Below, piece by piece: positions 1 to 46,168 of a stretch of 64,000 nt of DNA (position 1 is its first letter; each line of letters opens with the position of its first letter). Source of the DNA: Chitinophaga pinensis (GTDB taxonomy: Bacteria; Bacteroidota; Bacteroidia; Palsa-965); the NCBI GenBank assembly GCA_943372645.1, contig CALRZN010000018.1, forward strand, positions 27,771 through 91,770, given 5' to 3'. The translations under genes were made by a program, and so were the position numbers. The notes beneath the pieces were generated by a model. It had not been told where the DNA came from. It saw only the letters and a program-made list of their open reading frames with translations, and ran no database searches.

Positions 1-624
1 GTGGTGCGCGAAGATCCCGTGAATCCCGACCTGCTGTTTGTAGGAACGGATAACGGGGTGTACATCAGCTTCGATCGTGGCAAATCGTTTATGCGCATGA
101 CCGGCAGCCTGCCCGCAGTGGCCGTGCACGACATGGTAATACAGCCCCGCGAACACGACCTGGTAATTGCCACGCACGGGCGCTCTATCTGGATTGCAAA
201 CATCGCTGCGCTGGAAAACATGACACCGGCTATTTTGCAAAGCACATTTGCCGTGCAGGAACCGGAAGTAACCACACGCAAGGCATTTAACATGTTCGGC
301 AACTTTGTGAAAGATCCGTACGCATCAGGAACGTACATTACCAGCACGCCTGGTGTTTGCAGCATACGCCTGCTTTCTGCAAACGGGTTGCTGCTTGCAG
401 AAATGAAAGACACTGCAGAAGTTGGACTCAATTTCATGGAGATGCAGTTGCACATTGACAAAGACCGTTTGGCCGCATACACCGAAAGCCTCGGCGACAA
501 AAAAGAACAGCTGAACATTTCCGATCCGGAATACCTGGTACCGCTGGATGGCACATACGAACTGGAGTTTGTGATGCCGGGGCAGGCGGCGGTGCGGAAG
601 AAGGTGATTATTGGCAGGAAGTAA
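1..624 (+). CDS. C-terminal part of a BNR/Asp-box (sortilin/VPS10-like) beta-propeller protein; the 5' end lies outside the window
   Basis: The ORF is open from the window edge. Motifs DLLFVGTDNGVYISFDRGKSF and QPREHDLVIATHGRSIWIANI match the last propeller blades of Bacteroidota sortilin-type 'glycosyl hydrolase BNR repeat' proteins. Confidence 0.7.
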   Translation: MVREDPVNPDLLFVGTDNGVYISFDRGKSFMRMTGSLPAVAVHDMVIQPREHDLVIATHGRSIWIANIAALENMTPAILQSTFAVQEPEVTTRKAFNMFGNFVKDPYASGTYITSTPGVCSIRLLSANGLLLAEMKDTAEVGLNFMEMQLHIDKDRLAAYTESLGDKKEQLNISDPEYLVPLDGTYELEFVMPGQAAVRKKVIIGRK

Positions 625-634
625 GTTAGGTGTG

Positions 635-2008
635 TTATTCGGTTTTCAGCCAGAGCAATTCACCATTACTGTTGAAGTAAACATCGGGAACAAGTGAATC
701 TGCGGCGCTCTTCCTGTAACAGGCTATCGTGTGGCCATAAACAAGTATTTCGCCAAACTCAAACGGTACGAGGGTTTTTCCTTCAGCCGAAACAACACCC
801 CAGCGTTGCTGCTTGCGTGCCAGTATCAGTCCTTGCCCGCAATCTCTTAGTTCGTCAAAAACAGCAGGTGTTTTATTTTCAAGCGAAAGAGTAAATATGG
901 CCCATCGTTCTTCCCGGGCTGCAAGTAATACATTCGATGTTCCCGGAAGGACATGGCGGTACGAAGTGAATTCAAAATCACTTATTAGTTTTCCTTCAGT
1001 ATTCAATAACGCATACTTCCCGTTTTGTTTTACCCATGCGTACCCGTTTTCAAATGCAGAGGCATCATCGTAAACAGGAGTAATTACAAACCTTCCCGTG
1101 GTATCAATAAAGCCCCACCTGTTATCTTTTTTAGCGGGTATAATCCAGTGATTTTCAGAAAACCCCGGCGAAACAATGGAGTCTAATAAAACAGCTGCTA
1201 TTCGTATGTTTAAACAGGAGTCAATAAATCCCAGTTTAGCATTTCTGGTAAATGGTGCCCAATCGTTATTTTTAACAGGGAAATGAAAAGTGGAAAAACC
1301 TGCTCCGAAGTAGTCTTTTCCTTGAGCATCAATAACAAAAGTCATGTTGTCCCGTCTTACTGAAGCCAGCAACAATTTGTTGTGCAGTCCAAATTCAAGG
1401 GCATTATCGTAAATGGGTGAAATCACAAAAATGCCGTCATTATCGATGAAGCCGTACTTCCCGTTTAATTTAACTGCGGCTAATCCATGTTTAAAAGATC
1501 CGGCATGTTCGTATTGAGCTTTAATTACAATCTCCCCTTTTTTATCCAGGTATCCCCATTTCCTGTTGTTATCAGAAAATGGTGTCGGTAAATCAGAAAC
1601 AGTAAAATCACCTGTTACGAGTTCTATGTTTTTTCCAGGGAAAAGGATAAACTGCCCATCTGCATTTACTTCACCTGCTTTGTGTTTTCGTTCTGCACGT
1701 GTAACAATTCCAGGCTTATGATAATAAATGAAATTGTACCTGAAAGGAAGTACAGTCTTCCCGGCAGAATCAATAACACCCCACCGGTTTTTATTGTTTT
1801 TTACAATAACCTCGTCGGTGGCCGCAGGACTTCCGTAGCGGTACACAGGTTTAATACAGATATGGCCGTTGCTGTCTATATACCCGAATTTTCCGTTTTC
1901 GCTGATGATAAAAAGATTTTGATTTTGTGCCCGCAGGAGTGGCAGCAACTGCCACGTACCTGCGAGCATCAGAATCAATAACAGGATGCGTTTTTCCCGG
2001 CGTTTCAC
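635..2008 (-). CDS. WG (KWG) repeat-containing secreted protein
   Basis: There are many copies of the WG repeat: GKFGYIDSNG, NRWGVIDSAGK, RKWGYLDKKGE, GKYGFIDNDG, NRWGFIDTTGR, QRWGVVSAEGK. Only GTG starts are available (2062 or 2008). GTG at 2008 gives a KRREKR + hydrophobic signal peptide ending RAQ. Confidence 0.8.
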   Translation of the reverse strand: MKRREKRILLLILMLAGTWQLLPLLRAQNQNLFIISENGKFGYIDSNGHICIKPVYRYGSPAATDEVIVKNNKNRWGVIDSAGKTVLPFRYNFIYYHKPGIVTRAERKHKAGEVNADGQFILFPGKNIELVTGDFTVSDLPTPFSDNNRKWGYLDKKGEIVIKAQYEHAGSFKHGLAAVKLNGKYGFIDNDGIFVISPIYDNALEFGLHNKLLLASVRRDNMTFVIDAQGKDYFGAGFSTFHFPVKNNDWAPFTRNAKLGFIDSCLNIRIAAVLLDSIVSPGFSENHWIIPAKKDNRWGFIDTTGRFVITPVYDDASAFENGYAWVKQNGKYALLNTEGKLISDFEFTSYRHVLPGTSNVLLAAREERWAIFTLSLENKTPAVFDELRDCGQGLILARKQQRWGVVSAEGKTLVPFEFGEILVYGHTIACYRKSAADSLVPDVYFNSNGELLWLKTE

Positions 2009-2157
2009 AAAGTGAATATACCGGAAATTAATTATTGTACAACGGGATATTTGTCTTTCCACATACCGTATGATTTTTCAAAATACGAATACAGGTTTGG
2101 ACGTAATGCTGAAAAACGCTAACAAAATCACTTTTCATATCTGTACAACAATATAAA

Positions 2158-2868
2158 CTACTTCAACCCCATTTTTTCTGCTAATACCGAGGTTGCCGAA
2201 TCCAAAGGGGTATAACGATAAATTTCATACCGTTTTTCGGGTTTGCCAGGCTGCTGTTTCAATCCGGTAATTATATACAGGTAACTCTCAAAACTTCCGG
2301 TTTTTTTGGATAATTGAACAGGTTGTTCCCAAAAACGGTATGTAGTTAAAGAATTGCGAATGCTGTAACTGGTCTTCATGTTCATTAACTGTCTGTTTAC
2401 AATGCATGCTGGTTTCCCCCCAATAAGCTGGTACTTTTTATAGGTTAAAATAAGCCGTTCATTTGCAAGTGCAATCCGAATGATTGCATCATTTCGGCCG
2501 CGCATGCCAAAAGTCGGAACCCGGTGAATCCGGATTACCTCGTTCGCCGAATCAATTTCCAGTTTTTCAGGTTCAGCGAGCAATTTATAGGAAGAAGCAA
2601 TAACCATGTCCGCTGCAGAATTATTTTGGCTGATAATGGAAGAATCGATCGATTTCAGATCAATGTAAAGTGTATCAACGTGGACATATTCCGAAGCAGG
2701 TTTTGCCGGATTGTTACAGCCGGATAAATCGAATGTTGAAACAGCAGCAAGAGCCGCAAACATAAAAAAGAAAATGGTTTTATGGAGCGATGTGCCTGTT
2801 GGGGTCTTTAACAGTTTTTTCAAGAGCAGATACAAACAGTTTTGCAATGTCGTTAGAAGCCTGTTCAT
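2158..2868 (-). CDS. hypothetical lipoprotein (last gene of a four-gene operon)
   Basis: Lipobox-like FAALAAVSTFDLSGC is present. ATG at 2868 lies 3 nt after the stop of the upstream gene (2872-2874). I recognise no family. Confidence 0.6.
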   Translation of the reverse strand: MNRLLTTLQNCLYLLLKKLLKTPTGTSLHKTIFFFMFAALAAVSTFDLSGCNNPAKPASEYVHVDTLYIDLKSIDSSIISQNNSAADMVIASSYKLLAEPEKLEIDSANEVIRIHRVPTFGMRGRNDAIIRIALANERLILTYKKYQLIGGKPACIVNRQLMNMKTSYSIRNSLTTYRFWEQPVQLSKKTGSFESYLYIITGLKQQPGKPEKRYEIYRYTPLDSATSVLAEKMGLK

Positions 2869-2871
2869 CAC

Positions 2872-3678
2872 TTAGCGATATTCAAAAAGAACTACTCCCT
2901 GGTTTTTTAAAATCGCCTGGTCAGGTAAACTGGTGTCAATGTAACGATAGTTTACATCGTAATTATAATCCATAAGTAAATCACCGGTTCCGCGGCTCTC
3001 CGTGAGTTTACCGGATTCGTCATAAGACAGTATTCCCGGGTTACCCAGATCATTCATCGCGGTTATTCGGACCAGTTGATTTTGTGAATTGTAGTTGTAT
3101 AAAACAGTTGTTGTATCAGGCTGGCCGGGTGTGTGCACATTTATCTGGCGGATGCGATGCAGCGAGTCGTATTGCAATTCACAAACCAGGAATGGTTTTG
3201 TCTGCACAGTTTTTTTCCTTTTCCGATGCAGTGAATCAAAGGAGCATACTTCGTACGATTGAAGTACTGTTCCGCCCGAATCATAATGAAAAACATAATT
3301 ATACCCGGATGTTTTTTTGGAGGATACCCAGCGCACCAGTTTTTTCTTGATCGGTTTTCCTTTGGAATTGTAGTATGTTACTTCCCGGATACCACCGTAA
3401 ACATTGTATTCCTTTTTCAGAACAGGATTACCACCCGCATCAAAAAAAAACTCAGAATACAGGATACGTTTTAAGCCTGCACCCGCTATTTTCGAGGTGT
3501 CATAATTACGTATAAATGACTGCTGGGGAAGCAGCCAGCCGGTTTGCCGGGTAATGCCAGCTTCCCGGACATGTTCCGGTGTGTAAATCACACAATCGTC
3601 AATATCCGGGAGCTGGGCACAAAGTATTGCCGGGATGAGTTGCAGTAGAAAAGAAACAAGTATAGCTGCTTTTTGCAT
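2872..3678 (-). CDS. hypothetical secreted protein with YD/RHS-like beta-hairpin repeats
   Basis: Signal peptide MQKAAILVSFLLQLIPAILCAQ. Repeated Y-D/Y-N hairpin-like motifs: FHYDSGGTVLQSY, LQYDSLHRIRQI, YNYNSQNQLVRIT, SYDESGKLTES. Its start lies 12 nt after the stop of the upstream gene. Confidence 0.6.
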   Translation of the reverse strand: MQKAAILVSFLLQLIPAILCAQLPDIDDCVIYTPEHVREAGITRQTGWLLPQQSFIRNYDTSKIAGAGLKRILYSEFFFDAGGNPVLKKEYNVYGGIREVTYYNSKGKPIKKKLVRWVSSKKTSGYNYVFHYDSGGTVLQSYEVCSFDSLHRKRKKTVQTKPFLVCELQYDSLHRIRQINVHTPGQPDTTTVLYNYNSQNQLVRITAMNDLGNPGILSYDESGKLTESRGTGDLLMDYNYDVNYRYIDTSLPDQAILKNQGVVLFEYR

Positions 3679-3690
3679 CCCTAAAGTTAC

Positions 3691-4863
3691 TTATTCTAAT
3701 CCATATAACTTGGATACATCCGGTCGTTCTATGATATTGTATAAGCCGGGGGCTTCTCCGCCAACAATATCATTAGCATAAGGATTCGGATATAACGGAT
3801 CCGGATTTTTTTTCAAGTCTTTCTGCATTTTGATTTCATTAACAGCAAGCGGATTTTCATCCAGAAAACGTTTGTATTCTTTAATCAATTCATCAACTAG
3901 TTTTTCAGCCGACATTGGTTCATCAAAGGGATGTCCTCTGAACATGTGTTTTCCGCCAACCTTTCCCATATACAACACGAATTCCGCATTCCAGGCATCA
4001 CCTTTCATGTTGCCAAAATTCATGAAGTGTCCACGATCTCCGGGAATCAGTTCATCGTACGATTCAATTTTCTTTTCTTTTTTATCTGTTGTATCGGCAG
4101 TCAGATCATTCAGGTTAGCATCCCTGTGTTTTTTGGTTCCGTGCTCACTTTGCCTTTTTAACGGCTCAATCAGCAGCTCTTTTGTTTTGTAAAGTTCATT
4201 GAAAGCGGTTTCTCCGAGTTCTCTTTTTACGGTTATAAACTCCAATACTGCAAGTGCCGTAGAGCAGTCAACACGGAGATTGTTCTTTGGGTCAACAAGC
4301 GCCTCTATAGCAAGAGCAGGATTCAGATTTTCATTTGTTGAGAGGTCTTTCTTTAATCTGAACCCAGGGTTTACCTTGTCAGCAATTACCTCCCAGTAAG
4401 CAGTTGCATCTGTACTCCATTGTCCAAAACCGGGAATATCTTTTATTGTGGTTTGCATCAGTTTTACGGTTGTAAGACGGTAACGGATTTCCTTTTTCAT
4501 TGTATCCGCATCTTTATACCGGAACGTGTCATTGCTTTTTTCCATGGCACTGAGTATTTCCAACCCCTGTATTGCATCATAGCCGGCAACCGATAATTCT
4601 TTACGGAAATCCTCTCTGAATGTATCGTCGGGCTCAAATGATTCATATTCATCGGTAGTTCCGGCTTTTTTAATTTCAATGCCGGGGTTTTTGGTGTTTA
4701 CTTCGAGCGTGGTTTTTGCCGATTCCTGCTCATTTACTGAAACCGGATCAGTTTCGTTTTCAAAACCCATCTGCTGCATCCGTTCATCTTCCGAAACAAA
4801 AGTTTCCGTTTCCTGGTTCTCAAATCCGCCGGCCATCGCGCCGCGCTGTTCTTGCTTAAACAT
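3691..4863 (-). CDS. hypothetical cytoplasmic protein: acidic disordered N-terminus plus a globular region with a Cys...His motif layout (possible papain-like/NlpC-P60/transglutaminase-like fold)
   Basis: No signal peptide. The first ~90 aa are E/D/Q-rich. Motifs are RVDCSTALAVLEF (Cys200, codon 4264-4266), IPGDRGHFMNF and EFVLYMGKVGGKHMFRGHP. The fold assignment is only an impression. Confidence 0.65.
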   Translation of the reverse strand: MFKQEQRGAMAGGFENQETETFVSEDERMQQMGFENETDPVSVNEQESAKTTLEVNTKNPGIEIKKAGTTDEYESFEPDDTFREDFRKELSVAGYDAIQGLEILSAMEKSNDTFRYKDADTMKKEIRYRLTTVKLMQTTIKDIPGFGQWSTDATAYWEVIADKVNPGFRLKKDLSTNENLNPALAIEALVDPKNNLRVDCSTALAVLEFITVKRELGETAFNELYKTKELLIEPLKRQSEHGTKKHRDANLNDLTADTTDKKEKKIESYDELIPGDRGHFMNFGNMKGDAWNAEFVLYMGKVGGKHMFRGHPFDEPMSAEKLVDELIKEYKRFLDENPLAVNEIKMQKDLKKNPDPLYPNPYANDIVGGEAPGLYNIIERPDVSKLYGLE

Positions 4864-4888
4864 GTTTTTATTTTTTAGAGGTTAATAC

Positions 4889-5479
4889 TTATTTAATCGG
4901 AAATAATTCCGCAATCACTTCCTGCTGCACACCAATAAGCCCGCTGTAGGCTGGTTCGCCGGCGTTTTCAGGCGCGATGTACAGTTTGCCGTCGCGCAGC
5001 AGCTGCCATTCGTTGGACTGCAGTGCATGAATGAGCGCAAGGCGTTTTTCGAGGTTCGTATCAGCCACCAGCCACAGCCAGGTGAGTCCGGCGGGCAATA
5101 TGTCGCTGTAACGTTGCGTGCGGCTGCCACCCGCCCAGTGCGGTATAAGGCGCTCGCCCCGCGACGAAAAAAACACGGAATATACGCCCGGGTGAAAATG
5201 CGTGCCCAGGCCCAGCGCCAGCAGCAGCCGGGCTTCGGGGCTGGTCATGTTGTTTTGCAGCAGCAGTTTGCCCAGCACCGATTCCGGATCGTGCGCGGGT
5301 GGCAGCAGGTCGGTGAAATCCGTGTAGGTAGGCGAACTGATTTTGCGCGTCAGCGGATCGGTTTCGTAATACGGCGTTCGGATATGCTGGCTGACACGGA
5401 ATTTGATCACGCGTTCGAGCCAGTTCAGTTCATGAATAAGCGGTGCTGCCGCAGCAGGTGCAGATAAGGTGGATGTCAT
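4889..5479 (-). CDS. stand-alone protein resembling the N-terminal (pre-AAA+) region of Afp15/Pvc15-type ATPases; no Walker motifs, so possibly a truncated remnant
   Basis: Motif series: HELNWLERVIKFRV, LLPPAHDP, EARLLLALGLGTHFHPGV, GG..., LPAGLTWLWLVADTNLEKRL, GEPAYSGLIG. As I recall it, this matches the N-domain of Bacteroidota 'ATP-binding protein' genes linked to contractile injection system or DUF4157 loci. The ORF stops after 196 aa, before any P-loop. Confidence 0.5.
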   Translation of the reverse strand: MTSTLSAPAAAAPLIHELNWLERVIKFRVSQHIRTPYYETDPLTRKISSPTYTDFTDLLPPAHDPESVLGKLLLQNNMTSPEARLLLALGLGTHFHPGVYSVFFSSRGERLIPHWAGGSRTQRYSDILPAGLTWLWLVADTNLEKRLALIHALQSNEWQLLRDGKLYIAPENAGEPAYSGLIGVQQEVIAELFPIK

Positions 5480-9127: not shown

Positions 9128-11749
9128 ATGAAAAAATTAGGGGCAATACTGCTGCTTGTAATTTCCACAGCAGTGCACGCACAGACCACGTTCTGGACAG
9201 AATCATTCAGCAACGGCTGCACGGCAGGCTGTTCAGCAAACGGCTACAACGGTCCGAACGGCACCTGGACACAAACTATTACCGGCGTAGAAGGTGCTGA
9301 TCCCAACGCATGGTTTGTAAGCTGCGCAGAAAACAACACCGGCGTAGGCAACTGCAGTTCCGGCTGCGGAAACAACCAGACATTGCACATCAGCGCAGCC
9401 ATCGGTAACATCGTTTGCCCGAATGATTGCGGCGCTGCATACGATGCCGGCGGGCTCTGCGGTTTCCTCAGCTGCCCGCAAACCGACCGCCGCATCGAAT
9501 CGCCGGTGATCAATTGCACCGGGCAGACCAACATCTCCGTCAGTTTTGAATACATCGCGGCAGGTTCACCGCCCAACGACCAGTGTACACTCTGGTATTT
9601 TGATGGCAGCACCTGGTCGCAGATCGCAACGCTTGCACCGACAAACAATAGCGGTTGCGGCGGACAGGGCAAGTGGGCGGCGTTTGCAGCGGTTGCATTA
9701 CCGGCTTCAGCAAACAACAACCCCAACGTAAAAATCGGTTTCCGCTGGATCAATAATGATGACGGAGTAGGAACTGATCCTTCTGTTGCAATTGACAATG
9801 TTATTCTCACCGTTCCCTCCAGCGGACTTCCGCCGGTGGCTGCTTTTACGGCCAGCGCAACAACTGTTTGTGCAGGGCAGCCGGTAAATTTTACAGACAA
9901 CTCAACGAATACACCAACCAGCTGGAGCTGGACATTTCCTGGCGGCACACCCGCTACCGGCAACACCCAAAACGTTACCGGTGTGGTATGGAATGTTGCG
10001 GGAACATATACCGTAACACTTATCGTTACCAACGGAAACGGAAACGATACAACCACCCAGGTCATTACAGTAGTAGCCAATCCGGTGGTTACCACTTTTG
10101 CATCACCCACCACAATCTGTGTCGGGCAGAGCAGTACACTCACTGCGGCGGGTGCAACTACCTACAACTGGATGCCGGGCAACCTCAGCGGATCTTCGGT
10201 GAATGTTACACCAGCTGTAACTACAACGTACACCGTAACCGGAACGACCGGAAGTTGCACGGACACGGCACAGGTAACCGTGGTGGTGCAGGTATGTGCC
10301 GCGCCAATAGCGGCGTTTACACCAAGTGCTGCCACTACATGCGTAGGATCGCCGGTAAATTTTACCGATAATTCAACCGGCGGACCCACTTCCTGGAGCT
10401 GGACGTTTCCCGGCGCAATACCGGCCACTTCCAATGGACAGAATCCCACCAACGTGGTGTGGGCCGCACCCGGCAGTTATACGGTAACACTCATCGTTTC
10501 AAATATAAACGGCAGCGATACCACTACGCAGGTTATAACGGTAACTGCAGGGCCATCTGTTACAGCATCCGCTTCGTTGCCCGCCATCTGCAACGGTTCA
10601 AGCACAACGCTTACTGCTGTAGGCGCATTAACGTACCTGTGGAATCCCGGCAACCTTACGGGAAATCCGGTTACAGTTAATCCTTCAACTACTACAACAT
10701 ACACGGTAGTGGGTACCGATGCCGGCGGATGTATCGATACCGGGATGGTTACCGTTGCAGTAAATCCTGCTCCGGGTGTTACTGCCACGTCGCTCAACGC
10801 GCAGATTTGTGCGGGTGATTCTGCGACCATCATTGCCGGCGGTGCAGTTACTTACACCTGGCAGCCCGGCGGATTAACCGGTGCTTCACAAACGGTTGCG
10901 CCTGCTACAACCACCACATACACCGTAAACGGAACCGATGCCAACGGCTGTTCTGCAACGGCCATGGTAACCGTGGTAGTACAAGTGTGCAGCCTGCCGG
11001 TAGCCGCAGCAACAACATCAGATAACACGATCTGCGAAGGCACATGTATTGATTTTAACGATGTGAGCACCGGCAACGTAACCGCATGGAACTGGGTATT
11101 CCAGGGCGGAACACCGGCCACCTCCACGCAGCAGAATCCGACTTCCATTTGTTACAGCACCGCAGGTACTTATTCTGTTGTGTTGATTGTAACCAATATT
11201 GCCGGAAACGACACCACGGTACTTACGATTGATGTGGGTGCACCTGCTGCCATTGATGCCGGTCCGTTTGCGCAGATTGCCATCGGAAACAGCACCACGC
11301 TCAATGCCACCGGCGGTTCCGGCAGCTACAGCTGGAGTCCGGGCACCGGCCTGAGCTGCACCGGCTGTGCATCACCGACCGCTTCGCCAACGGTTACTAC
11401 GACGTATACGGTAACAATGACCGACAGTTATGGCTGCCAGTCGTCGGATACGGTAACGGTTGAAGTGATTGAAAAATACGACCTGTTTATTCCCTCCGCA
11501 TTTTCGCCCAACGGCGACGGACACAACGATATGCTTTTTGTGCGTGGGGCAGGCATAAAAGAACTGCAGTTTTTTGTGTTCAGCCGCATCGGTGAAAAGG
11601 TGTTTGAAACCACGGACAAAAACATGGGCTGGGATGGTGTGTATCGCGGACTGCCTATGAATACAGGTGTTTTCACGTATTATGTGAAAGCCACATTCTA
11701 CAACAACACGAGTGAAGTGAAAAAAGGTGACATTACTTTAGTGCGTTAA
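9128..11749 (+). CDS. T9SS type B (gliding motility-associated) C-terminal domain protein with alternating PKD and Ig-like modules
   Basis: Signal peptide present. Three PKD-type modules (FTDNSTN.PTSWSWTFPGGTPAT...GTYTVTLIVTN) are interleaved with Ig-like modules (TYNWMPG, TYLWNPG, TYTWQPG, SYSWSPG). The C-terminus FIPSAFSPNGDGHNDMLFVRG...GWDGVYRG...GVFTYYVKA is the CHU_C/type B sorting domain. Confidence 0.9.
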   Translation: MKKLGAILLLVISTAVHAQTTFWTESFSNGCTAGCSANGYNGPNGTWTQTITGVEGADPNAWFVSCAENNTGVGNCSSGCGNNQTLHISAAIGNIVCPNDCGAAYDAGGLCGFLSCPQTDRRIESPVINCTGQTNISVSFEYIAAGSPPNDQCTLWYFDGSTWSQIATLAPTNNSGCGGQGKWAAFAAVALPASANNNPNVKIGFRWINNDDGVGTDPSVAIDNVILTVPSSGLPPVAAFTASATTVCAGQPVNFTDNSTNTPTSWSWTFPGGTPATGNTQNVTGVVWNVAGTYTVTLIVTNGNGNDTTTQVITVVANPVVTTFASPTTICVGQSSTLTAAGATTYNWMPGNLSGSSVNVTPAVTTTYTVTGTTGSCTDTAQVTVVVQVCAAPIAAFTPSAATTCVGSPVNFTDNSTGGPTSWSWTFPGAIPATSNGQNPTNVVWAAPGSYTVTLIVSNINGSDTTTQVITVTAGPSVTASASLPAICNGSSTTLTAVGALTYLWNPGNLTGNPVTVNPSTTTTYTVVGTDAGGCIDTGMVTVAVNPAPGVTATSLNAQICAGDSATIIAGGAVTYTWQPGGLTGASQTVAPATTTTYTVNGTDANGCSATAMVTVVVQVCSLPVAAATTSDNTICEGTCIDFNDVSTGNVTAWNWVFQGGTPATSTQQNPTSICYSTAGTYSVVLIVTNIAGNDTTVLTIDVGAPAAIDAGPFAQIAIGNSTTLNATGGSGSYSWSPGTGLSCTGCASPTASPTVTTTYTVTMTDSYGCQSSDTVTVEVIEKYDLFIPSAFSPNGDGHNDMLFVRGAGIKELQFFVFSRIGEKVFETTDKNMGWDGVYRGLPMNTGVFTYYVKATFYNNTSEVKKGDITLVR

Positions 11750-11766
11750 AAAGGGAGGAGAAAAAC

Positions 11767-12801
11767 ATGAAAAATAAACTCGTTTTATCGTTCGTATTTG
11801 CGGCGGCAATCAGTATGCCTGCTTTTGCACAGGATTTTCACTACTCGCTGTGGCACATGTCGCCGCTTGCGCTCAATCCGGCCAATACCGGGGCTTACAC
11901 AGGAGATATCCGCGTGGTGAACAACTACCGTATGCAATGGTTTACGGTTGCCACGCCTTATAAAACATTATCGGCCGGGCTGGATGCGCCCATCTTTAAA
12001 AAGAAAATGCAGGGCACTGATTTTTTTGCGGCGGGCTTTGTGTTTAATAACGATAAAATCGGAACCTCGGCGTTGAAAACAAACCGGTACGATTTATCAT
12101 TTGCGTTCCACAAAGACCTGGGCGGCATGCGTGCGAATTACATTTCGCTCGGCTTCCAGACCGGGCTGGGGCAGCAGAGCATCAACCTGGGCGGCATGAG
12201 CTGGGATTCGCAATACGACGGCCTGCAATACAACGCCGCTTTGCCCACGCAGGAAGGCGCTGGCGGTTCGCACATCTGGTTCGATCATTCGGTGGGTATG
12301 CTTTACACCGGCACGGGCAACGAACGGTTTAAAAACATGATCGGTATTTCGTACCTGCACCTTACCCGACCCGATGTCGGTTTTATTATGAGCGATCGCC
12401 TGTACCGGAAGCTGAATGTGCACTGGACCGCGCAGGTAGCGCTGGGGGCCAATTCGAATGCGGTGCTGGTGCCGACTATTTTGTATTCGCGCCAGGGACC
12501 GAGCCAGCTCATCAATACCGGCGCGGGGGTGAAATACCTGCTGCAGCAGCGTTCGCGTTATACCGGTTTTAAAGATGAAAAAGCGATTACGTTTGGTGCG
12601 TCGTACCGCCTCAAAGATGCGGCTTCGGCATACGTGCGTTTTGATTATGCGGGCTGGGGAATCGGCTTCAATTACGATTTTAATATTTCCGATTTAACCG
12701 TGGCCAGCAAAGGCGTGGGCGCGCTCGAATTTATGGCCATTTACACCGGCCTGTTCGGCAGCCAGCAAAATACACGGCGCGATAATGCGAGCTTTTTTTG
12801 A
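11767..12801 (+). CDS. PorP/SprF family type IX secretion system membrane protein
   Basis: N-terminus AQDFHYSLWHMSPLALNPANTGAY..RVVNNYRMQW and the ~340-aa beta-barrel-like length. It lies immediately downstream of a type B cargo gene. Confidence 0.85.
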   Translation: MKNKLVLSFVFAAAISMPAFAQDFHYSLWHMSPLALNPANTGAYTGDIRVVNNYRMQWFTVATPYKTLSAGLDAPIFKKKMQGTDFFAAGFVFNNDKIGTSALKTNRYDLSFAFHKDLGGMRANYISLGFQTGLGQQSINLGGMSWDSQYDGLQYNAALPTQEGAGGSHIWFDHSVGMLYTGTGNERFKNMIGISYLHLTRPDVGFIMSDRLYRKLNVHWTAQVALGANSNAVLVPTILYSRQGPSQLINTGAGVKYLLQQRSRYTGFKDEKAITFGASYRLKDAASAYVRFDYAGWGIGFNYDFNISDLTVASKGVGALEFMAIYTGLFGSQQNTRRDNASFF

Positions 12802-13007: not shown

Positions 13008-15701
13008 ATGAAACTACGCATCGGCATTGTATTCGGTGGGCAGTCGAAAGAACGTGAAATTTCGTTTGCCGGCGGCCGTACTGTTTATGACAACCTGAAT
13101 AAATCCCTGTTTGAACCCGTTCCGTTGTTCATTGACAGCTTCGGGAATTTTGTGCTCCTTAACTGGGAGTACGTTTACAAAGGTTCCATCCGCGATTTTT
13201 ATCCGCCCGTGGCCTTCCTTAAACCTTCGCCCGGCGATTTCCAGGTGTATGCAGAAAGCCTGCAGCCCGATGAAACCACCCAACTGCAAATGATTGAAGC
13301 CATCGGCAAACGCATTGCTGCTGATGACCTGAAAAAACACATTGATTTTGCATTTCTCTGCCTCCACGGTCCGTTCGGTGAAGACGGCCGTATCCAGGGT
13401 CTGTTCGAATACCTCGGCATACCGTACAGCGGCTCGGGCATTTTGCCTTCCGCCATCGGCATTGACAAATCAGTACAGAAAAAACTGATGGTGAATGCGG
13501 GCTTCAACAGTCCGAAGTTTTTTACGGTTGACCGTAACGCTTACATCAGCGGTAACTGCAAAGGCCTTTTTGAAAAAGCAAAAAACGAAATCGGTTTACC
13601 GCTCGTGATTAAACCCGCCAACCAGGGTTCGTCCATCGGTGTAACTATACTGCATAATGACAGCGACTATGAATTTATGGCCGCGGTTGAAAAAGCGCTC
13701 TTCACCCGCTGGCTCGATGCCGGTGAATGGAAAGCGATGAATGCCGAACAGCGCAACGAATATGTGCGTGTGCTGTCAGACATACGCGAAGGCATTGGCA
13801 TGCCGCTTACCGTAAACGGCGAACTGGTTTATCATCCCGATGAATTTGTTGCCCTGCTGGATAAAAATTCAGCCACCGAAAAAGAAGGCTGGGTACTCGA
13901 AGCCCGCGACGGCGAAAGCGATGTGCTCATCGAAGGATTTATTGAAGGCAAGGAGTTTTCGTGCATCGTGGTGCAGTCAGGCGAACAGGGCGGGCCACTC
14001 GCTTTGCCACCCACCGAAATACGCAAAGGCAAAGAGTTGTTCGATTACCGCAGCAAATACCTGCCGGGGCTTTCGCGCAAAATTACGCCCATCCAGTTGC
14101 CCGACGAACAGATCGAAGCCATCCGCAGCGAATGTGAACGCCTGTTTGTGGCGCTTGAGTTTGATGTATATGCCCGCATTGACGGATTTATTAACGCCGA
14201 AGGAAAAATTTTCCTGAATGATCCGAACACCACCTCGGGCATGATGCCGTCGTCGTTTTTCTTTCACCAGGCGGCTGAAATCGGGCTTAATCCGTCGCAG
14301 TTTCTTACGTACATCATTCACGTATCGCTGCAGCAGCGCATACGCAACGATAAAAACGCACACCGTTACAACCACCTGCTGGTTACGCTTGACAAAGCCA
14401 TGCACGATGCGCGGCAGCAGGGCGAACAGAAAACGCGGGTGGCTGTTATTCTCGGCGGTTACTCCAGCGAGCGCCACATTTCAGTAGAAAGCGGCCGTAA
14501 CATTTATGAAAAGCTGGCTTCATCGGCCAAATACACGCCCGTACCGGTGTTTCTTACCGGCAACAGCGATGATCACCAGTTGTATGTGATCCCGGTAAAC
14601 GCATTGCTGAAAGACAATGCCGACGACATCAAAGAAAAAGTAGATCACTGGTACGTGCATCCGGTGGTGCAAAAAATCATAAGCCAGGGCGAAGCGCTTA
14701 CACACACGTATTCCTCGCCCGAAAACCTGGCCGCACCGCGCCGCATTTCGTATGATGAACTTGCAACAATGTGCGATGCCGTATTCATTGCGTTGCATGG
14801 TCGTCCCGGCGAAGATGGTGCCGTGCAGGAACGCCTCGAAAAAATCGGGCTGCCGTATAACGGTTCAGGCAAAGCCAGTTCGGAAATTACGATTGATAAG
14901 TATCGCACCAACGAAATACTGATGCAGCATGGTTTACTGGCGGCAGCACATTTCCTGGTAACGGAAGCCGACTGGCAGAACAGCCGCGATGCCGTACTGC
15001 AAACCATTGATGAAAAAATAAAATGGCCGTTCATTGCCAAGCCCGTTGACGACGGCTGCAGTTCGGCTGTGCGTAAAATAAAAACGAAAGCCGAACTCGA
15101 AGCGTTTGCAGAACTCATCTTCCGCAAAACAGACGATCTCGATGCCAAGGCGGCCGAATTGCTGCACATCAAACCGAAGGAAGAATTCCCTTCGAAAAAA
15201 GTATTCCTCATCGAAGAGCTCATCAGCAAACGCGATGCGGTGCATTTCCTGGAAATCACAGGCGGTATGCTCACGCGGTTCAACGCCAAAGGAGAGCGGG
15301 AATACGAAGTGTTTGAAGCATCCGAGGCGCTTTCGGAAGGCGAAGTACTTTCGCTCGAAGAAAAATTCCTGGCAGGGCAGGGACAGAACATCACGCCGGC
15401 GCGTTATTCGGCCGATTCCGCCGAACGCCAGCGTATTTCTGACCAGGTGAAGGCAACGCTTGGCACGGCCGCACGTCTGTTAAATATCGAAGGGTATACC
15501 CGCATTGATGCTTTTGTGCGGATTTTTGCCAACGGTAACGTGGAAACGGTTTTTGTCGAGGTTAATTCACTCCCGGGAATGACACCGGCCACCTGCATTT
15601 TTCACCAGGCAGCCATTAACAACTATAAACCGTACGAATTTATTGACCGTATTCTCGATTTTGCATTCGCACGCCAGAAACAGAACGCGGTTAAAGCCTG
15701 A
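13008..15701 (+). CDS. ddl: Tandem-fused D-alanine--D-alanine ligase family protein (two complete ATP-grasp Ddl-like modules)
   Basis: Module 1 motifs: IVFGGQSKEREISFAGG, LHGPFGEDGRIQGL..GIPYSGSG, LVIKPANQGSSIGV, YARIDGF...NDPNTTSGM. Module 2 starts near nt 14433, with motifs VILGGYSSERHISVESG, LHGRPGEDGAVQERL..GLPYNGSG, FIAKPVDDGCSSAV, YTRIDAF...EVNSLPGMTPAT. Confidence 0.85.
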   Translation: MKLRIGIVFGGQSKEREISFAGGRTVYDNLNKSLFEPVPLFIDSFGNFVLLNWEYVYKGSIRDFYPPVAFLKPSPGDFQVYAESLQPDETTQLQMIEAIGKRIAADDLKKHIDFAFLCLHGPFGEDGRIQGLFEYLGIPYSGSGILPSAIGIDKSVQKKLMVNAGFNSPKFFTVDRNAYISGNCKGLFEKAKNEIGLPLVIKPANQGSSIGVTILHNDSDYEFMAAVEKALFTRWLDAGEWKAMNAEQRNEYVRVLSDIREGIGMPLTVNGELVYHPDEFVALLDKNSATEKEGWVLEARDGESDVLIEGFIEGKEFSCIVVQSGEQGGPLALPPTEIRKGKELFDYRSKYLPGLSRKITPIQLPDEQIEAIRSECERLFVALEFDVYARIDGFINAEGKIFLNDPNTTSGMMPSSFFFHQAAEIGLNPSQFLTYIIHVSLQQRIRNDKNAHRYNHLLVTLDKAMHDARQQGEQKTRVAVILGGYSSERHISVESGRNIYEKLASSAKYTPVPVFLTGNSDDHQLYVIPVNALLKDNADDIKEKVDHWYVHPVVQKIISQGEALTHTYSSPENLAAPRRISYDELATMCDAVFIALHGRPGEDGAVQERLEKIGLPYNGSGKASSEITIDKYRTNEILMQHGLLAAAHFLVTEADWQNSRDAVLQTIDEKIKWPFIAKPVDDGCSSAVRKIKTKAELEAFAELIFRKTDDLDAKAAELLHIKPKEEFPSKKVFLIEELISKRDAVHFLEITGGMLTRFNAKGEREYEVFEASEALSEGEVLSLEEKFLAGQGQNITPARYSADSAERQRISDQVKATLGTAARLLNIEGYTRIDAFVRIFANGNVETVFVEVNSLPGMTPATCIFHQAAINNYKPYEFIDRILDFAFARQKQNAVKA

Positions 15702-32217: not shown

Positions 32218-35200
32218 ATGAAAAAATTACTTACGCTGATCCTGCTGGCGTTTTCGGGAATTGTGCTGCGTGCGCAGGACATTTCTGTTATTTCCATACA
32301 GGCTCCTGTTAGCGGCTGTGCGTTAACCGCCACCGAAAACGTGACGATCCGGATATTTAACTATGGTCCCACCTTAACTGCGGGCTCATCGTTTAACGTA
32401 TCCTATACGATTAACGGAGGTCCGCCGGTTACCGAACTGCTCACACTCGGCAGCAACCTGCTTTCCAACTCCACGCTCAACTATACGTTTACCACGCAGG
32501 CCAACCTGTCGGTTCCTGGCTCTTATACGTTTGATGCGACCTGCAACCTCGTGGGCGATATCAATCCGAGCAATAATGCATTCAACGGCTATATTGTAAC
32601 AAATACAGCACCCTCTGTAGGCGGAACCATTGCAGGACCGAGCAGTGTCTGTCTCAGCGGAAACAGCGGAAACCTGACACTCAGCGGGCACACCGGCAAC
32701 GTATTGCGCTGGGAATACTCAACCGACGGCGGTTTTACGTGGATCAACGTTACCAATACATCTACCACACAGCCTTACAATAACCTGACTGTACCGACCC
32801 AATACCGTGCAGTGGTGCAGAGCGGCGGATGTACCCCGGCATTTTCAACACCGATTTCCATTGCCATTGACAATCCGTCGGTTGGCGGAACACTTTCACC
32901 GGGGGCTAATGTGGTTTGTATCACCAGTAACTCCGGTGTGCTTACGCTCAGCGGCCGCACAGGAACAATTATCCGCTGGGAGTTTTCTACTGACGGCGGC
33001 CTAACCTGGACGAATATTGCAAACACACTGGCTACCTATACGTACATCGGGCTTACACAAACCACGCAGTTCCGGGTACTGGTGCAGAATGCATCCTGCT
33101 CGGCAACGTATTCATCAATTGCAACTGTTACTGTTTCACCGGCTTCCGTGGGTGGTTCAATTGCCCCGGCCGTAACATCGGTTTGTGCACCAACCAACAG
33201 CGGCACATTAACACTGAGCGGCCACACGGGTGCTGTAAACCGCTGGGAGTTTTCAATTGACGGCGGACTTACCTGGACTGCAATTGTCAACACTACCACA
33301 ACCTTAAACTTTACAAACCTGACTGTATCACGTTTATACCGTGCACGCATTATCAGCGGAACCTGTTCGCCGGTATTTTCAGCAACAGCCGCAGTAAACG
33401 TAACAGCAGCTTCCATCGGCGGAACAATTGCTCCAGCATCTGCAACCGTTTGCAGCGGGGCAAACAGCGGTACACTCACCCTGGGCGGTAATGTGGGCAA
33501 CGTGGTGCAGTGGGAAAATTCCATTGACGGCGGAGTTACCTGGACTGTGATAGCCAACACCACCAACACAGAGAATTACACCAACCTGATCACAACCACC
33601 CTGTACCGTGCGCTTGTTCAAAGCAGCGGCTGCACGGCAGCATATTCATCAACTACAACCATCACGGTTAGTCCGACTTCTGTTGGCGGAACAACAGCAA
33701 CTCCGATATCGGTATGCAGTGGTTCGAACAGTGGTTCGGTAACCTTATCGGGACAAACCGGTTCTATTACCCGCTGGGAATTTTCGACCGACGGCGGCCT
33801 TACCTGGAGCCCGATTGTAAACACGACTACCACGCAGGCATTTACAAACCTGACACAAACCACGCAGTACCAGGTTATCGTACAGAGCGGTGTATGTCCG
33901 GCCGATACCTCGGGTATCGTAACAATTACAGTTGATCCGGTTACAGTAGGTGGAACGACCTTACCCGCAAACGATACCGTTTGTTCGGGTGCAAACAGCG
34001 GAACAATAACGCTGTCGGGCAACGTAGGCAATGTGATCCGCTGGGAATTATCAACTGATAACGGGCTTACCTGGATTTCAATCGGTAACACAACAACATC
34101 ACAGACGTACAACAACATCAATACGTACACGCTGTACCGTGCTGTGGTACAAAGCGGAACCTGTTCGCAAACGTTTTCATCGGTTGCAGCAGTAACTGTT
34201 GATCAGCCTGCAACCGGCGGAACGCTTTATGGTTCAACCACCGCATGCAGCGGCAGCAACAGCGGAACGATTACACTTATCGGCGCAATCGGAACCATTT
34301 CGAACTGGGAAAGCTCATCGGACAATGGCGTTACCTGGACAGCGATTGCCAACACAACAACGAGCCTTAATTTCCTGAATCTGACGGACACCACCTTGTA
34401 TCGTGTAATCGTTACGAACGGTGTTTGTAATGCGGATACGTCCACTCTGGCTACTATTCTTATTGATGAAGTATCGCTGGGCGGAACAGTAACTGTTGAT
34501 GATACCGTTTGCAGCGGGGCGAACAGCGGATTTGTAACACTGAGCGGACACCGCGGTATTGTGGACGGCTGGGAGTTTTCTACGGACGGCGGTTTTACCT
34601 GGATCAACATTTCGAACAGCACCACCACGCAGAACTTCCTGAACCTTACCGCAACCACCATGTACCGTGCACGTGTGCAGAACGGGGTGTGTTCACCGGT
34701 GAACTCCACATTTGCAACCATTACGGTTGATCCCCCTGCTACGGGCGGAACTGTTACCGGCAGCACAACAGTGTGTGCTTCGGGCAACAGCGGCAGCCTC
34801 GTGCTCACCGGTTATTCCGGCAGTATTGTAAGCTGGGAGACATCGGCTGACGGCACAACCTGGGTACCGAACGGCAATACCACTGCAACTGAAAGTTATA
34901 CCAACCTGGCCGATACAACATGGTACCGTGTAATTGTAAGCAGCGGCGTTTGCGGATCAGATACTTCTTCAATGGGTTCTGTTGTTGTTGATCCCGCTAC
35001 AGTAGCCGGTGCTGTTACGCTTAACGATACGGTTTGTTCCGGTACCAACAGTGGCACCATTTACCTGAACGGACAAAACGGTGCAGTAACCGGCTGGCAA
35101 TATTCTACCGATGGTATGAACTGGATTGCGCTGGCGAACACCGCCGATTCACTGAACTATGCCAACCTGCTGCAGACGACCTATTACCAGGCCGTGGTGC

Positions 35201-36501: not shown

Positions 36502-36522
36502 CCGCCCCAAAAAAAGAACGAT

Positions 36523-37467
36523 ATGAAAAAGCTCATATATACCATCAGTGTTTTATGCGGTACCTGGTTTGCAGCCGGTGCGCAGCAACTGCCGCTTTAC
36601 AGCCAGTATTATTTTAATCCGTTCCTGTACAATCCTTCGATGACCGGGATCAGCGATGAAACGAATGTGAACCTCGTTCACCGTTCGCAATGGACAGCCA
36701 TTCCGGGGGCGCCGGTTACCAATGCACTTACATTGGACGGAGCCATCAACGACAAAAAGATGGGACTCGGGTTTACGGTTTTTAATGATGTGCAGGACAT
36801 CAGCGAGCGGATGGGATTATACGCATCGTATGCGTACCGTCTTAAAATCAATGATGACAACCGGGTGCTTTTCGGTTTGTCAGGCGGATTTCTCGACAAC
36901 CGCATTGATTTTGCAAAAGCAGTGGTGATTGATAATACCGATCCGATGCTGTTCTCTTCGCTGCAGCGCAAAAGCACGCTTGATGCGAGTGTAGGTGTTA
37001 CCTACGAATGGACCAAACTACGTGTTGGTATTGCAGTACCGCAACTGGTGGGGCAATTCGTTCCGTTTGCGGATAACAATGATCCACGTTCCTATTACCA
37101 GCTGAACCGCCATTACCTCGGATCGGCACAATATGAATTTACGCTGAGTGAAGCCGCTGAACTTAAACTGGAGCCGCTGGCCATGGTTCGTTTTATGAAA
37201 AACGCCCCGGTGCAGTATGATGTGAATGCCATCCTGAACTGGAAAAACATGGGCTGGTTTGGTGTATCGTATCGCAGCAATTACGCGGTGGGAGCCAATG
37301 TGCGCATTAAGCTGTTCAACAGCCTGAGTGCCGGTTATGCTTACGATTTTATTCTTACACCGTTGCGTACTTCGGGTGGATTCAGTCATGAATTCCAACT
37401 CGGTTACACGTTCGGTCAGCTTTCGGGCGGAAACGCCGTGGGCCGTGTACGTGCCAAATACGATTAA
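36523..37467 (+). CDS. PorP/SprF family type IX secretion system membrane protein
   Basis: AQQLPLYSQYYFNPFLYNPSMTG...VNLVHRSQW and ~314 aa. It follows the type B cargo gene by 21 nt. Confidence 0.85.
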   Translation: MKKLIYTISVLCGTWFAAGAQQLPLYSQYYFNPFLYNPSMTGISDETNVNLVHRSQWTAIPGAPVTNALTLDGAINDKKMGLGFTVFNDVQDISERMGLYASYAYRLKINDDNRVLFGLSGGFLDNRIDFAKAVVIDNTDPMLFSSLQRKSTLDASVGVTYEWTKLRVGIAVPQLVGQFVPFADNNDPRSYYQLNRHYLGSAQYEFTLSEAAELKLEPLAMVRFMKNAPVQYDVNAILNWKNMGWFGVSYRSNYAVGANVRIKLFNSLSAGYAYDFILTPLRTSGGFSHEFQLGYTFGQLSGGNAVGRVRAKYD

Positions 37468-41477: not shown

Positions 41478-41492
41478 GAATCTTGTATGCAG

Positions 41493-41500
41493 CAAAGGTA
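41493..41500 (-). promoter_or_regulatory. Candidate -7 box (TACCTTTG on the minus strand) for the M23 peptidase gene
   Basis: Matches TAnnTTTG, 15 nt upstream of the ATG at 41477. Confidence 0.35.
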
Positions 41501-41524
41501 GTTTTACTGCCTGCCTAAAACTCA

Positions 41525-41532
41525 TATATTTG
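41525..41532 (+). promoter_or_regulatory. Candidate -7 box TATATTTG for the MORN/TonB_C gene array
   Basis: Matches TAnnTTTG, 18 nt upstream of the ATG at 41551, in the 73-nt divergent intergenic region. Confidence 0.4.
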
Positions 41533-41550
41533 ATAAACAACTTTTCAACC

Positions 41551-46099: not shown

Positions 46100-46168
46100 T
46101 GACTTTTTGCGGTTTGTGAAAAAGCGGTTAAACTTGCGTCTTCAACCCGTAAAATATACTATTCGTTA

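Follow-up and report, generated by a model that had tools for sequence, protein, structure and literature searches.

Introduction

How do contractile injection systems (CIS) choose their cargo? The cargo of extracellular CIS (eCIS) starts with a disordered N-terminal loading sequence specific to the system, may then carry a DUF4157 domain and ends in a variable C-terminal domain; its loading into the tube requires an AAA+ protein, Alg15 or Pvc15 (10.64898/2026.05.27.728243; PMC11495950; PMC9054023). In the 2026 study of AlgoCIS, the loading mechanism is described as unclear for any eCIS, and the reading of the loading sequence by the cognate AAA+ protein as a hypothesis (10.64898/2026.05.27.728243). 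Here we analyze a locus at positions 2158-5479 of a stretch of 64,000 nucleotides (nt) from Chitinophaga pinensis (contig CALRZN010000018.1, positions 27,771 to 91,770), hereafter the window. Its first gene, g1, encodes a relative of the N-terminal domain that such loader ATPases have, and is followed by a gene for a putative toxin, g2, and by genes for exported partner proteins. With a probability of about 0.6, we consider it an off-cluster, polymorphic cargo-immunity island of the CIS type (eCIS or Photorhabdus virulence cassette, PVC) with a standalone loader N-domain, from which we infer delivery by a CIS.

Several elements of such an island have precedents. Polymorphic toxins of the PVC route, including Tox-TGase and zincins, have been catalogued (Zhang et al. 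2012, PMC3482391), and EAT14, which combines DUF4157 with a transglutaminase-like domain, is a validated eCIS toxin (PMC11297309). One Bacteroidota CIS cargo is toxic only when targeted to the periplasm (PMC12210884). Toxin-immunity pairs of eCIS are occasional, the surveys mostly being without immunity genes beside eCIS toxins (PMC8213781). The ingredients are thus known, from the loaders and loading sequences of eCIS and the DUF4157 domain to polymorphic toxins of the PVC route, EAT14 and occasional toxin-immunity pairs; in the open-access literature we found no prior account of a free-standing loader N-domain family heading cargo cassettes, nor of a fixed-site, leader-anchored series of CIS-cargo alleles with arrays of orphan partners. 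A further point of comparison is provided by the auxiliary modules of type VI secretion systems (T6SS), in which an adaptor or chaperone (DUF4123, DUF1795/Eag, DUF2169), an effector and an immunity protein are encoded remote from the main cluster.

Results

A standalone N-domain family

An initial annotation, made from the letters of the window, had outlined four minus-strand open reading frames (ORFs), g1 to g4, all of which are present where it placed them (Table 1). An exhaustive phmmer search with g1 among 1.84 billion cluster representatives yielded 101 matches; 62 of the 100 that are not near-identical have at most 235 residues, and 22 have at least 400. In eight long matches (~430-550 residues) checked in Pfam, the g1-like region is N-terminal and followed by an AAA domain (PF00004). 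The best-scoring long match, P0014 (phmmer E 9e-12; proteins and contigs used for comparison are given P and L numbers), is encoded directly after a CIS_TMP gene and in the company of genes for Phage_T4_gp19 (the tube), the sheath, GPW_gp25 and Pvc16_N, which, by gene order, is the Afp15 position of a canonical eCIS. On the plasmid pAT3 of Aureibacter tunicatorum, a member of the Bacteroidota (RefSeq), an 'ATP-binding protein' follows a 'contractile injection system tape measure protein' in a cluster that also holds VgrG, PAAR, gp25, DUF4255 and sheath genes. Residues 27-211 of this ATPase match a hidden Markov model of standalone members only (E 1.8e-48), and its Walker A motif lies at 271. 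In the 628-residue P0044, a CIS_TMP fragment (PF19268) is read through into a g1-like region with a weak match to PF22977, a winged-helix variant.

Judged by these matches, g1 is homologous to the N-terminal ~190 residues of the AAA+ ATPase at the Afp15/Pvc15/Alg15 position, the matches being to ~450-residue, single-AAA ATPases at the Afp15 position and not directly to the Pvc15, Afp15 and Alg15 sequences. The initial annotation had arrived at the region preceding the AAA+ module of Afp15/Pvc15-type ATPases from a series of motifs (ELNWLERVI, PP, RLLLALGL..H..P, GG, LPAGLTWLWL, GEPAYSG). The phmmer and Pfam results and the contexts of P0014 and the Aureibacter ATPase bear this out; the profile match to ATPase N-domains that it had named as a check was found, and the motifs correspond to conserved columns of a 48-member family alignment, in which W20, R28, R84, L86, L87, L89, H94, P97, P129, G131, T133, R146 and P176 are invariant or nearly so. 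As it had also noted, g1 ends before any Walker motif: neither such a motif nor a Pfam AAA match is present in g1, the ORF ends at residue 196 with the effector gene next, and there is no AAA-like sequence downstream. Lacking the AAA module, g1 is not an ATPase and belongs only to the N-domain of the loader family. Pfam, NCBIfam and PDB sequence searches with g1 gave no match (in the PDB a single chance-level one, E 0.4), tblastn against plasmids gave none either, and word-indexed homology searches returned near-identical relatives only, even with the family profile.

Could g1 be what is left of a decaying gene for a full-length ATPase, and the grouping of the four ORFs incidental? Its end falls just where the AAA module would start, as a remnant would have it, and we still regard this explanation as scarcely tenable. 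The ORF is intact at 196 residues in six strains, with pairwise ratios of non-synonymous to synonymous substitution rates (dN/dS) of 0.06-0.24, its orthologues at the same site being 93-98% identical in L001, L003, L004 and L005 and ~78% identical in the L011 lineage. The prevalence of the short form among the representatives, all seven inspected members being complete ORFs with another gene next, and the absence of AAA-like sequence downstream likewise speak against decay. Finally, an AlphaFold (AF2) model of g1 computed with the family alignment is predicted to be compact with high confidence (predicted local distance difference test, pLDDT, 90.4; predicted TM-score, pTM, 0.88), the single-sequence model being unusable (pLDDT 40). 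By its substitution pattern, g1 is a working gene under purifying selection, not debris.

In seven further contigs (six distinct proteins), standalone N-domain genes adjoin cargo-like genes. In L006, which stems from the same sample as L001, P0009, 39% identical to g1, precedes a 674-residue effector with DUF4157 (PF13699, eCIS_core in Pfam; E 4.7e-25) and then a lipoprotein; the association with DUF4157 that the initial annotation had named is thereby found in a paralogue of g1. In its C-terminal part, this effector is a member of the unnamed toxin family that also comprises P0006 and P0008 (34-39% identity). In L013, from the metagenome-assembled genome of an uncultured Chryseobacterium, an eCIS cluster includes a standalone member of 213 residues, encoded behind the tape-measure gene and a GH25 lysozyme; the next genes encode a 512-residue protein whose long N-terminus is polar and of low complexity and which has a peptidoglycan-binding domain, and then a lipoprotein, and a DUF4157 protein is encoded nearby. 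In L014, a standalone member is found 150 nt from a DUF4157-phosphatase effector and 2.3 kb from a 452-residue AAA ATPase whose N-terminus matches the family profile (E 1.4e-41), so that standalone and full-length forms can coexist. In L007, L008 and L009, the standalone genes are followed, at a distance of at most 20 nt or with an overlap, by genes whose products have long polar N-termini.

Two observations on these relatives may be added. The slot after the tape-measure gene of L013 (L013:6977-12165, CAYMZV010000048.1) is taken by the GH25 lysozyme gene and then the N-domain-only gene, and the available 17 kb of this contig show no AAA ATPase of full length; either the ATPase is encoded elsewhere, or the cluster uses the N-domain alone. 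Moreover, the effectors after three standalone paralogues start with MF and a polar, Q/E-rich stretch: MFKQEQ (window 4863) and, at L006:10609 and L009:10594, MFTHEQQ and MFHSPVHRKQ. This start may be a common feature of the extreme N-terminus of the leaders.

A variable site behind a constant leader

What follows g1 differs between strains. Across related metagenome contigs, the gene order is a DUF2807 gene, the g1 orthologue, an effector, one or more partner genes and a BNR/Sortilin gene, and five effector/partner alleles occupy this chromosomal site (seven contigs in all). The window and L011 have a TGL effector with a downstream YD-repeat partner, g3; L001 has a 535-residue zincin (HEIGH) with a 372-residue WG-repeat protein, and L004 a 664-residue zincin (HEVGH) with a 443-residue WG-repeat protein; L003 has a 499-residue toxin of an unnamed family with a 113-residue protein, and L005 a 503-residue toxin of that same family with a 203-residue lipoprotein. 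A single relative that matches g2 over its full length came out of the homology searches, P0004 of L011, which is 77% identical overall and 83% in the TGL domain. The effectors P0005 to P0008 share with g2 only the first 35-45 residues (MFKQEQRGAMAGGFENQETETFVSEDERMQQMGFE), their C-terminal domains being unrelated to TGL.

The boundary of this conserved leader is sharp. DNA homology between the window and L001, L003 and L004 runs from the left flank through g1 and ends at position 4759, which is codon 35 of g2, not to reappear before the end of the Sortilin gene, which places the left recombination junction at 4759/4758; the leader is thus kept at the DNA level between strains whose effectors otherwise differ. 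The GC content is 0.574 in g1 and ~0.50 in the flanks, and it falls to 0.41-0.43 over g2 to g4 and the adjacent WG-repeat gene. In P0005, P0006 and P0007 the leader is 83-94% identical to that of g2, and in P0008 (L005) 66%, with g1 at 95-96% identity in these four strains; in the L011 lineage the leader is 54% and g1 ~78% identical, yet the TGL domain 83%. Over these very few lineages, the figures fit a leader that tracks g1 rather than the toxin domain. By this comparison, the locus represents one allele at a hypervariable site for polymorphic toxins, where everything past leader codon 35 has apparently been exchanged by recombination between strains, and we propose the 35-residue leader as the cargo-loading sequence.

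The unnamed toxin domain of this site, of ~350 residues and without a Pfam match, is common to P0006, P0008 and the effector at L006:10609-12633 (32-39% identical), with the motifs TRIKTIRGMFYGTEWS, FGHLIIGLEAR, TWLGDLGGGA and NLEGD; a different small protein or lipoprotein comes next after each of the three. Separately, L001 holds a Fic-domain gene (472 residues; L001:16564-17982) between the BNR/Sortilin gene and an alanine racemase-like gene, which is not found in L003, L004 and L005; this adds, by the same comparison, another small spot of variation next to the toxin site.

The g2 product and its relation to Tgl

The initial annotation had found no nameable family among the four proteins, which proved wrong for g2: residues 102-332 match the Pfam family TGL (PF20085), which comprises protein-glutamine gamma-glutamyltransferases like Bacillus Tgl, with an E-value of 8.5e-16 and 58.4 bits against a cut-off of 23.7. 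In the NCBIfam Tgl equivalog model, g2 reaches 31 bits against a cut-off of 307 and, missing this threshold, it belongs in a Tgl-type family without being an orthologue of the spore-coat enzyme. With Bacillus subtilis Tgl as the reference, whose sequence is identical to PDB 4P8I over 245 residues, hhalign pairs RVDCSTALAVLEF of g2 with AFECATAIVIIYY of Tgl, placing Cys200 on Cys116 and Asp199 on Glu115 (E 1.4e-4, probability 53%). In a pairwise alignment, WNAEFVLYMG of g2 falls on WRGENVILLG, with Glu294 on Glu187, and PGDRGHFMN on LGDCLYFKN, with His279 on a non-catalytic position of Tgl. Unlike Tgl, g2 has a charged insertion of 28 residues, the leader at its N-terminus and an extension at its C-terminus.

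Tgl uses a Cys116/Glu187 dyad, for which Glu115 can partially substitute, on an NlpC/P60 core (PMC6490927). Together with the alignments, this suggests that the catalytic set of g2 is likely Cys-Glu(-Asp), not Cys-His, and g2 may be described as a putative transglutaminase or NlpC/P60-core enzyme with a papain-like core. The initial annotation had named a transglutaminase fold or NlpC/P60 core with a Cys...His arrangement; the fold stands, and the histidine would, by the alignment, give way to Glu294 with Asp199. A Pfam match of g2 to NlpC/P60 is absent, and PDB sequence searches gave no match with g2 and one chance-level match (E 0.82) with a profile of g2 and P0004. As had been described from the translation, g2 has no signal peptide, carries Cys200 in RVDCSTA and starts with an acidic, polar region: residues 1-95 have a net charge of -13 (23 D/E against 10 K/R), a mean hydropathy of -1.13 and no hydrophobic segment, and 77% of them are disorder-promoting, the call of disorder being one of composition only.

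Two other roles for g2 were considered and rejected: export by the type IX secretion system (T9SS), as the C-terminal sorting domain is absent, and a housekeeping Tgl function, as zincins replace the gene at the same site.

Exported partners and displaced toxin ends

Directly after the TGL effector P0004 in L011 lies a gene whose product is 74% identical to g3; the Sortilin gene comes next, without a g4 or WG-repeat gene. By this pairing, g3 is a candidate cognate partner, and putative immunity protein, of the TGL effector; it has a Sec-type signal peptide, MQKAAILVSFLLQLIPAILCA, and matches Rhs/teneurin YD-repeat cores (PDB 8qja, E 5.6e-5). The product of g4 is instead 90% identical to the 203-residue lipoprotein encoded after P0008 in L005, and the DNA block 2159-2868 is 92.6% identical to that contig. 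Upstream, at 2783-2866 and in another frame than g4, tblastn finds residues 476-503 of P0008 at 100% identity, followed by its stop. The longest ORF is therefore over-extended, and the start of g4 is most likely the ATG at 2763, which gives 201 residues with the lipobox FDLSGC; a PDB sequence search with g4 gave no match. By its neighbors elsewhere, g4 would be the orphan partner, and putative immunity protein, of a P0008-type toxin that is absent from the window.

The same pattern recurs one gene further on. An exported WG-repeat protein (Pfam PF14903, WG_beta_rep, E 9.6e-50) is 84% identical to the gene product after the P0005 zincin in L004, the DNA leftwards from 2089 being 88.9% identical to this contig, and residues 637-664 of P0005 are found by tblastn at window positions 2035-2118 (82% identity). 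It, too, appears to be an orphan partner, and putative immunity protein, of a toxin absent from the window, here a P0005-type zincin. The array thus reads as a single active module (leader-TGL and g3) with two orphan modules behind it, in each of which a toxin relic is paired with a partner; in polymorphic toxin systems, such an array is the classic trace of C-terminal displacement (PMC3482391). The toxins at the site have no signal peptides and all three partners are exported, a topology expected for delivery from outside into the periplasm of a diderm neighbor. Beyond the WG and YD repeats, no Pfam match places g3, g4 or the WG-repeat protein in a catalogued Imm family.

In the light of these relics, how does the picture of a fixed four-gene operon fare, in which a Cys-His, NlpC/P60- or Tae-like amidase is neutralized by periplasmic g3 and g4? 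The signal peptide and YD-like repeats of g3 and the lipoprotein character of g4, both announced by the initial annotation, are borne out, the latter by the lipobox LSGC, so both proteins are exported as this picture has it, and the catalytic core of Tgl-type enzymes is indeed of the NlpC/P60 kind (PMC6490927). Where Tgl has its catalytic partner residue, however, the alignment places Glu294, with His279 at a non-catalytic position; g4 pairs with the P0008 toxin, as both its identity to the partner of that toxin and the toxin's 3' relic upstream indicate; and the orthologous TGL cassette of L011 has g3 only. We therefore hold a fixed operon of this kind to be very improbable. The logic of exported partners survives with g3 as the only cognate one, and the tight four-gene operon does not: g4 and the WG-repeat gene come from other cassettes, the latter being a fifth member of the same-strand array. 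Accordingly, g1, g2 and g3 co-occur outside this genome, in L011, but all four genes together do not. The gaps of 25 and 12 nt between g1 and g2 and between g2 and g3 are as first listed, and that of 3 nt between g3 and g4 is an artefact of the over-extended g4 ORF.

Surroundings of the locus

Table 1. Features of the locus and its boundary in the window
Feature	Position	Strand	Description
g1	4889-5479	minus	ORF of 196 aa; standalone N-terminal-domain homologue; constant gene of the locus
g2	3691-4863	minus	ORF of 390 aa; leader, linker and TGL-like effector
g2 leader	4759..4863	minus	35 codons, MFKQEQRGAMAGGFENQETETFVSEDERMQQMGFE
g2 acidic linker, predicted disordered	4579..4758	minus	residues 36-95; from composition
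g2 TGL-like domain	3868..4560	minus	residues 102-332; Pfam PF20085
g2 putative catalytic codons	Cys200 4264-4266; Asp199 4267-4269; Glu294 3982-3984	minus	
g3	2872-3678	minus	268 aa; exported YD-repeat protein
P0008-type toxin relic	2780..2866	minus	last 28 codons and stop
g4	2158-2871 (longest ORF); 2158..2763 (from ATG at 2763)	minus	237 aa as longest ORF; 201 aa from ATG at 2763
P0005-type zincin relic	2032..2118	minus	last 28 codons and stop
WG_beta_rep gene	ORF 635-2062	minus	start uncertain: GTG 2008 or ATG 1969
BNR/Sortilin gene, 3' end	1-624	plus	convergent; conserved boundary of the cassette region
Variable cassette region	625..4758		between the conserved leader and the BNR/Sortilin gene

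The rest of the window holds T9SS cargo with CHU_C or Por_Secre_tail domains, PorP/SprF, DnaK, a pair of extracytoplasmic function (ECF) sigma and anti-sigma factors, TonB paralogues, RNase Y and polysaccharide synthesis genes, and is an ordinary Bacteroidota chromosome. PADLOC and PHROGs searches gave no meaningful match, so the locus counts neither among the known defence systems nor among the phage families. A scan for sigma-70 promoters and terminators gave fewer matches than in shuffled sequence, such a scan being uninformative for Bacteroidota.

Some of these neighbors deserve mention in their own right. The BNR/Sortilin-Vps10 beta-propeller gene at window positions 1-624 (958-residue orthologues in L001-L005) shows faint precomputed matches to PF24316 (Tli3, a T6SS lipase immunity family), a signal that may have no bearing on the island. 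Two pairs of a large PKD/Ig surface protein with a T9SS-sorted CHU_C domain and a PorP/SprF protein are encoded on the plus strand at 9128-12801 and 32218-37467, as is seen in gliding or T9SS Bacteroidota. Also on the plus strand, at 13008-15701, an ORF of 897 residues, whose orthologue in the syntenic contigs has Dala_Dala_lig_N/C twice in tandem, looks from these domains like a fused double D-alanine-D-alanine ligase (Ddl), and at 41458-46942 four paralogues follow each other, with MORN_2 repeats and a C-terminal TonB_C domain, the fourth having TonB_C only.

Discussion

What can be inferred from this arrangement about the role of g1? In the proposed cargo-immunity island, g1 would bind the leader in the cytoplasm of the producer, hold the cargo and either hand it over to a full-length loader ATPase encoded elsewhere or set the leader specificity of that ATPase, which would thread the unfolded cargo into the CIS tube. 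After injection into a neighboring diderm cell, the TGL domain would modify targets in the envelope or periplasm by cross-linking, deamidation or hydrolysis. Kin would be protected by periplasmic g3, and g4 and the WG-repeat protein would protect against the toxins of sister strains, the two orphan modules being leftovers of earlier cassettes.

Several points weigh against this reading. As the initial annotation had noted for the window, no structural genes of a CIS or T6SS (sheath, tube, baseplate, spike, tape-measure, terminator) are found in its 64 kb, and the +/-10 kb of the syntenic contigs hold no CIS structural genes either; a full-length loader ATPase is absent from the window and from +/-10 kb around the loci of the syntenic contigs. 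No DUF4157 (PF13699) was found in g2 by the Pfam search, and the equivalence of Glu294 and Glu187 comes from a pairwise alignment of low identity only. For the good g1 model, Foldseek returned nothing better than E 2 in the PDB or E 0.66 in BFVD; without a solved structural relative, the predicted fold adds no independent functional clue. We found no literature that assigns cargo recognition specifically to the N-domain of the ATPase; in Pvc15, every domain is needed for loading and D2 is implicated in the interaction with the signal peptide. Exported immunity proteins are unusual for the described eCIS cargo, which is mostly directed at eukaryotes. The binding of g1 to the leader, loading, toxicity and protection are all putative.

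The absence of a machine could mean that the module has been cut loose from CIS, in a genome without one, and that its toxins take another route (lysis, vesicles, an undescribed exporter) or act inside the cell. Besides the missing CIS genes in the window and the syntenic contigs and the missing DUF4157 of g2, the empty outcome of our scans for close relatives, of GTDB genomes with close relatives of g1 and of JGI metagenomes with the leader and with g1, would agree with this. However, off-cluster effector islands are normal for contractile systems, the paralogous module in the same sample as L001 bears an eCIS marker domain, more distant members of the standalone family occur within or next to CIS gene sets, and cytoplasmic toxins with exported partners point to delivery from outside. 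We consider it improbable that the module has lost its connection to CIS.

A different objection grants the toxin/immunity island and reduces g1 to a cytoplasmic holding chaperone or generic neutralizer, with no part in CIS cargo selection or loader docking. As g1 is constant while the toxins vary, it would have to recognize the constant leader and not the toxin domain, and the cytoplasm of the producer has no other visible protection, all partners being exported; Pvc15, moreover, is reported to stabilize payloads that would otherwise be unstable, by way of the signal peptide (PMC11495950). What this leaves unexplained is why the chaperone should be a paralogue of the loader N-domain, and why such genes are found within CIS clusters, at their side and next to the gene for a full-length ATPase. 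A chaperone and nothing else is thus a possible, if unlikely, role for g1, and chaperone and loader-adaptor functions are not mutually exclusive.

We therefore keep to the CIS-type cargo-immunity island, and add a more general idea as a speculation, somewhat more apt to be wrong than right: standalone loader N-domains may be trans-acting specificity adaptors, each with a co-evolving leader, by which one machine takes several off-cluster, recombining cargo families. If so, the locus would speak of strain-level interbacterial warfare in Bacteroidota with periplasm-acting toxins and acquired arrays of immunity genes, and the pair of g1 and leader would be a minimal natural recognition unit for eCIS cargo selection. 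In either case, the free-standing N-domain and the 35-residue leader offer a two-part system for tests of binding, structure and engineering, such as the retargeting of payloads, and a simple natural system for asking how injection machines choose cargo. The allele series with its orphan partners constitutes sequence-level evidence for CIS-type cargo in between-strain antagonism with immunity in environmental Bacteroidota, and enlarges the list of candidate effectors by a Tgl-type transglutaminase, two zincins and the unnamed toxin family of ~350 residues, together with candidate immunity proteins.

How does the locus compare with known systems? At the level of the enzyme, g2 resembles B. subtilis Tgl (4P8I) in Cys200, Asp199 and Glu294, which align with Cys116, Glu115 and Glu187, a likeness by alignment only. 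It shares a transglutaminase-like domain with EAT14, an example of such a domain acting as an eCIS-associated toxin, but the domain of EAT14 resembles another transglutaminase (5m6q) and is accompanied by DUF4157, neither of which applies to g2.

The architecture recalls the cargo of AlgoCIS and PVC. As there, a short conserved leader is followed in g2 by an acidic stretch predicted to be disordered and an enzyme domain, and effectors with unrelated C-terminal domains have the leader in common, as is reported for pairs of cargo from one system; the loader N-domain has its homologue in g1, and the paralogous module of L006 has DUF4157. In contrast to these systems, the gene beside the cargo encodes the N-domain alone, without an AAA module, no CIS cluster is visible near the island, and the cargo is polymorphic at a fixed site, with cognate and orphan exported partners. 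With polymorphic toxin systems (CDI, Rhs, the PVC-metallopeptidase route), the locus shares a constant N-terminus, a sharp junction to a variable C-terminal toxin, an immunity gene directly downstream, and displaced toxin 3' fragments and immunity genes that pile up behind. Here, however, the constant part is 35 residues long and not a large filament, an Rhs shell or a DUF4157 domain, a separate, constant, loader-related gene heads the locus, and the putative immunity proteins are exported and stand outside the catalogued Imm families.

Finally, the auxiliary modules of T6SS have the same plan of a small accessory gene before an effector-immunity pair, away from the machine, with periplasm-acting effectors that lack signal peptides and immunity proteins that are exported. 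Yet g1 is unrelated to the adaptors of those modules: it derives from the ATPase of the machine and is not a spike-binding protein, and the cargo of eCIS-type machines is loaded into the lumen of the tube and not onto VgrG or PAAR.

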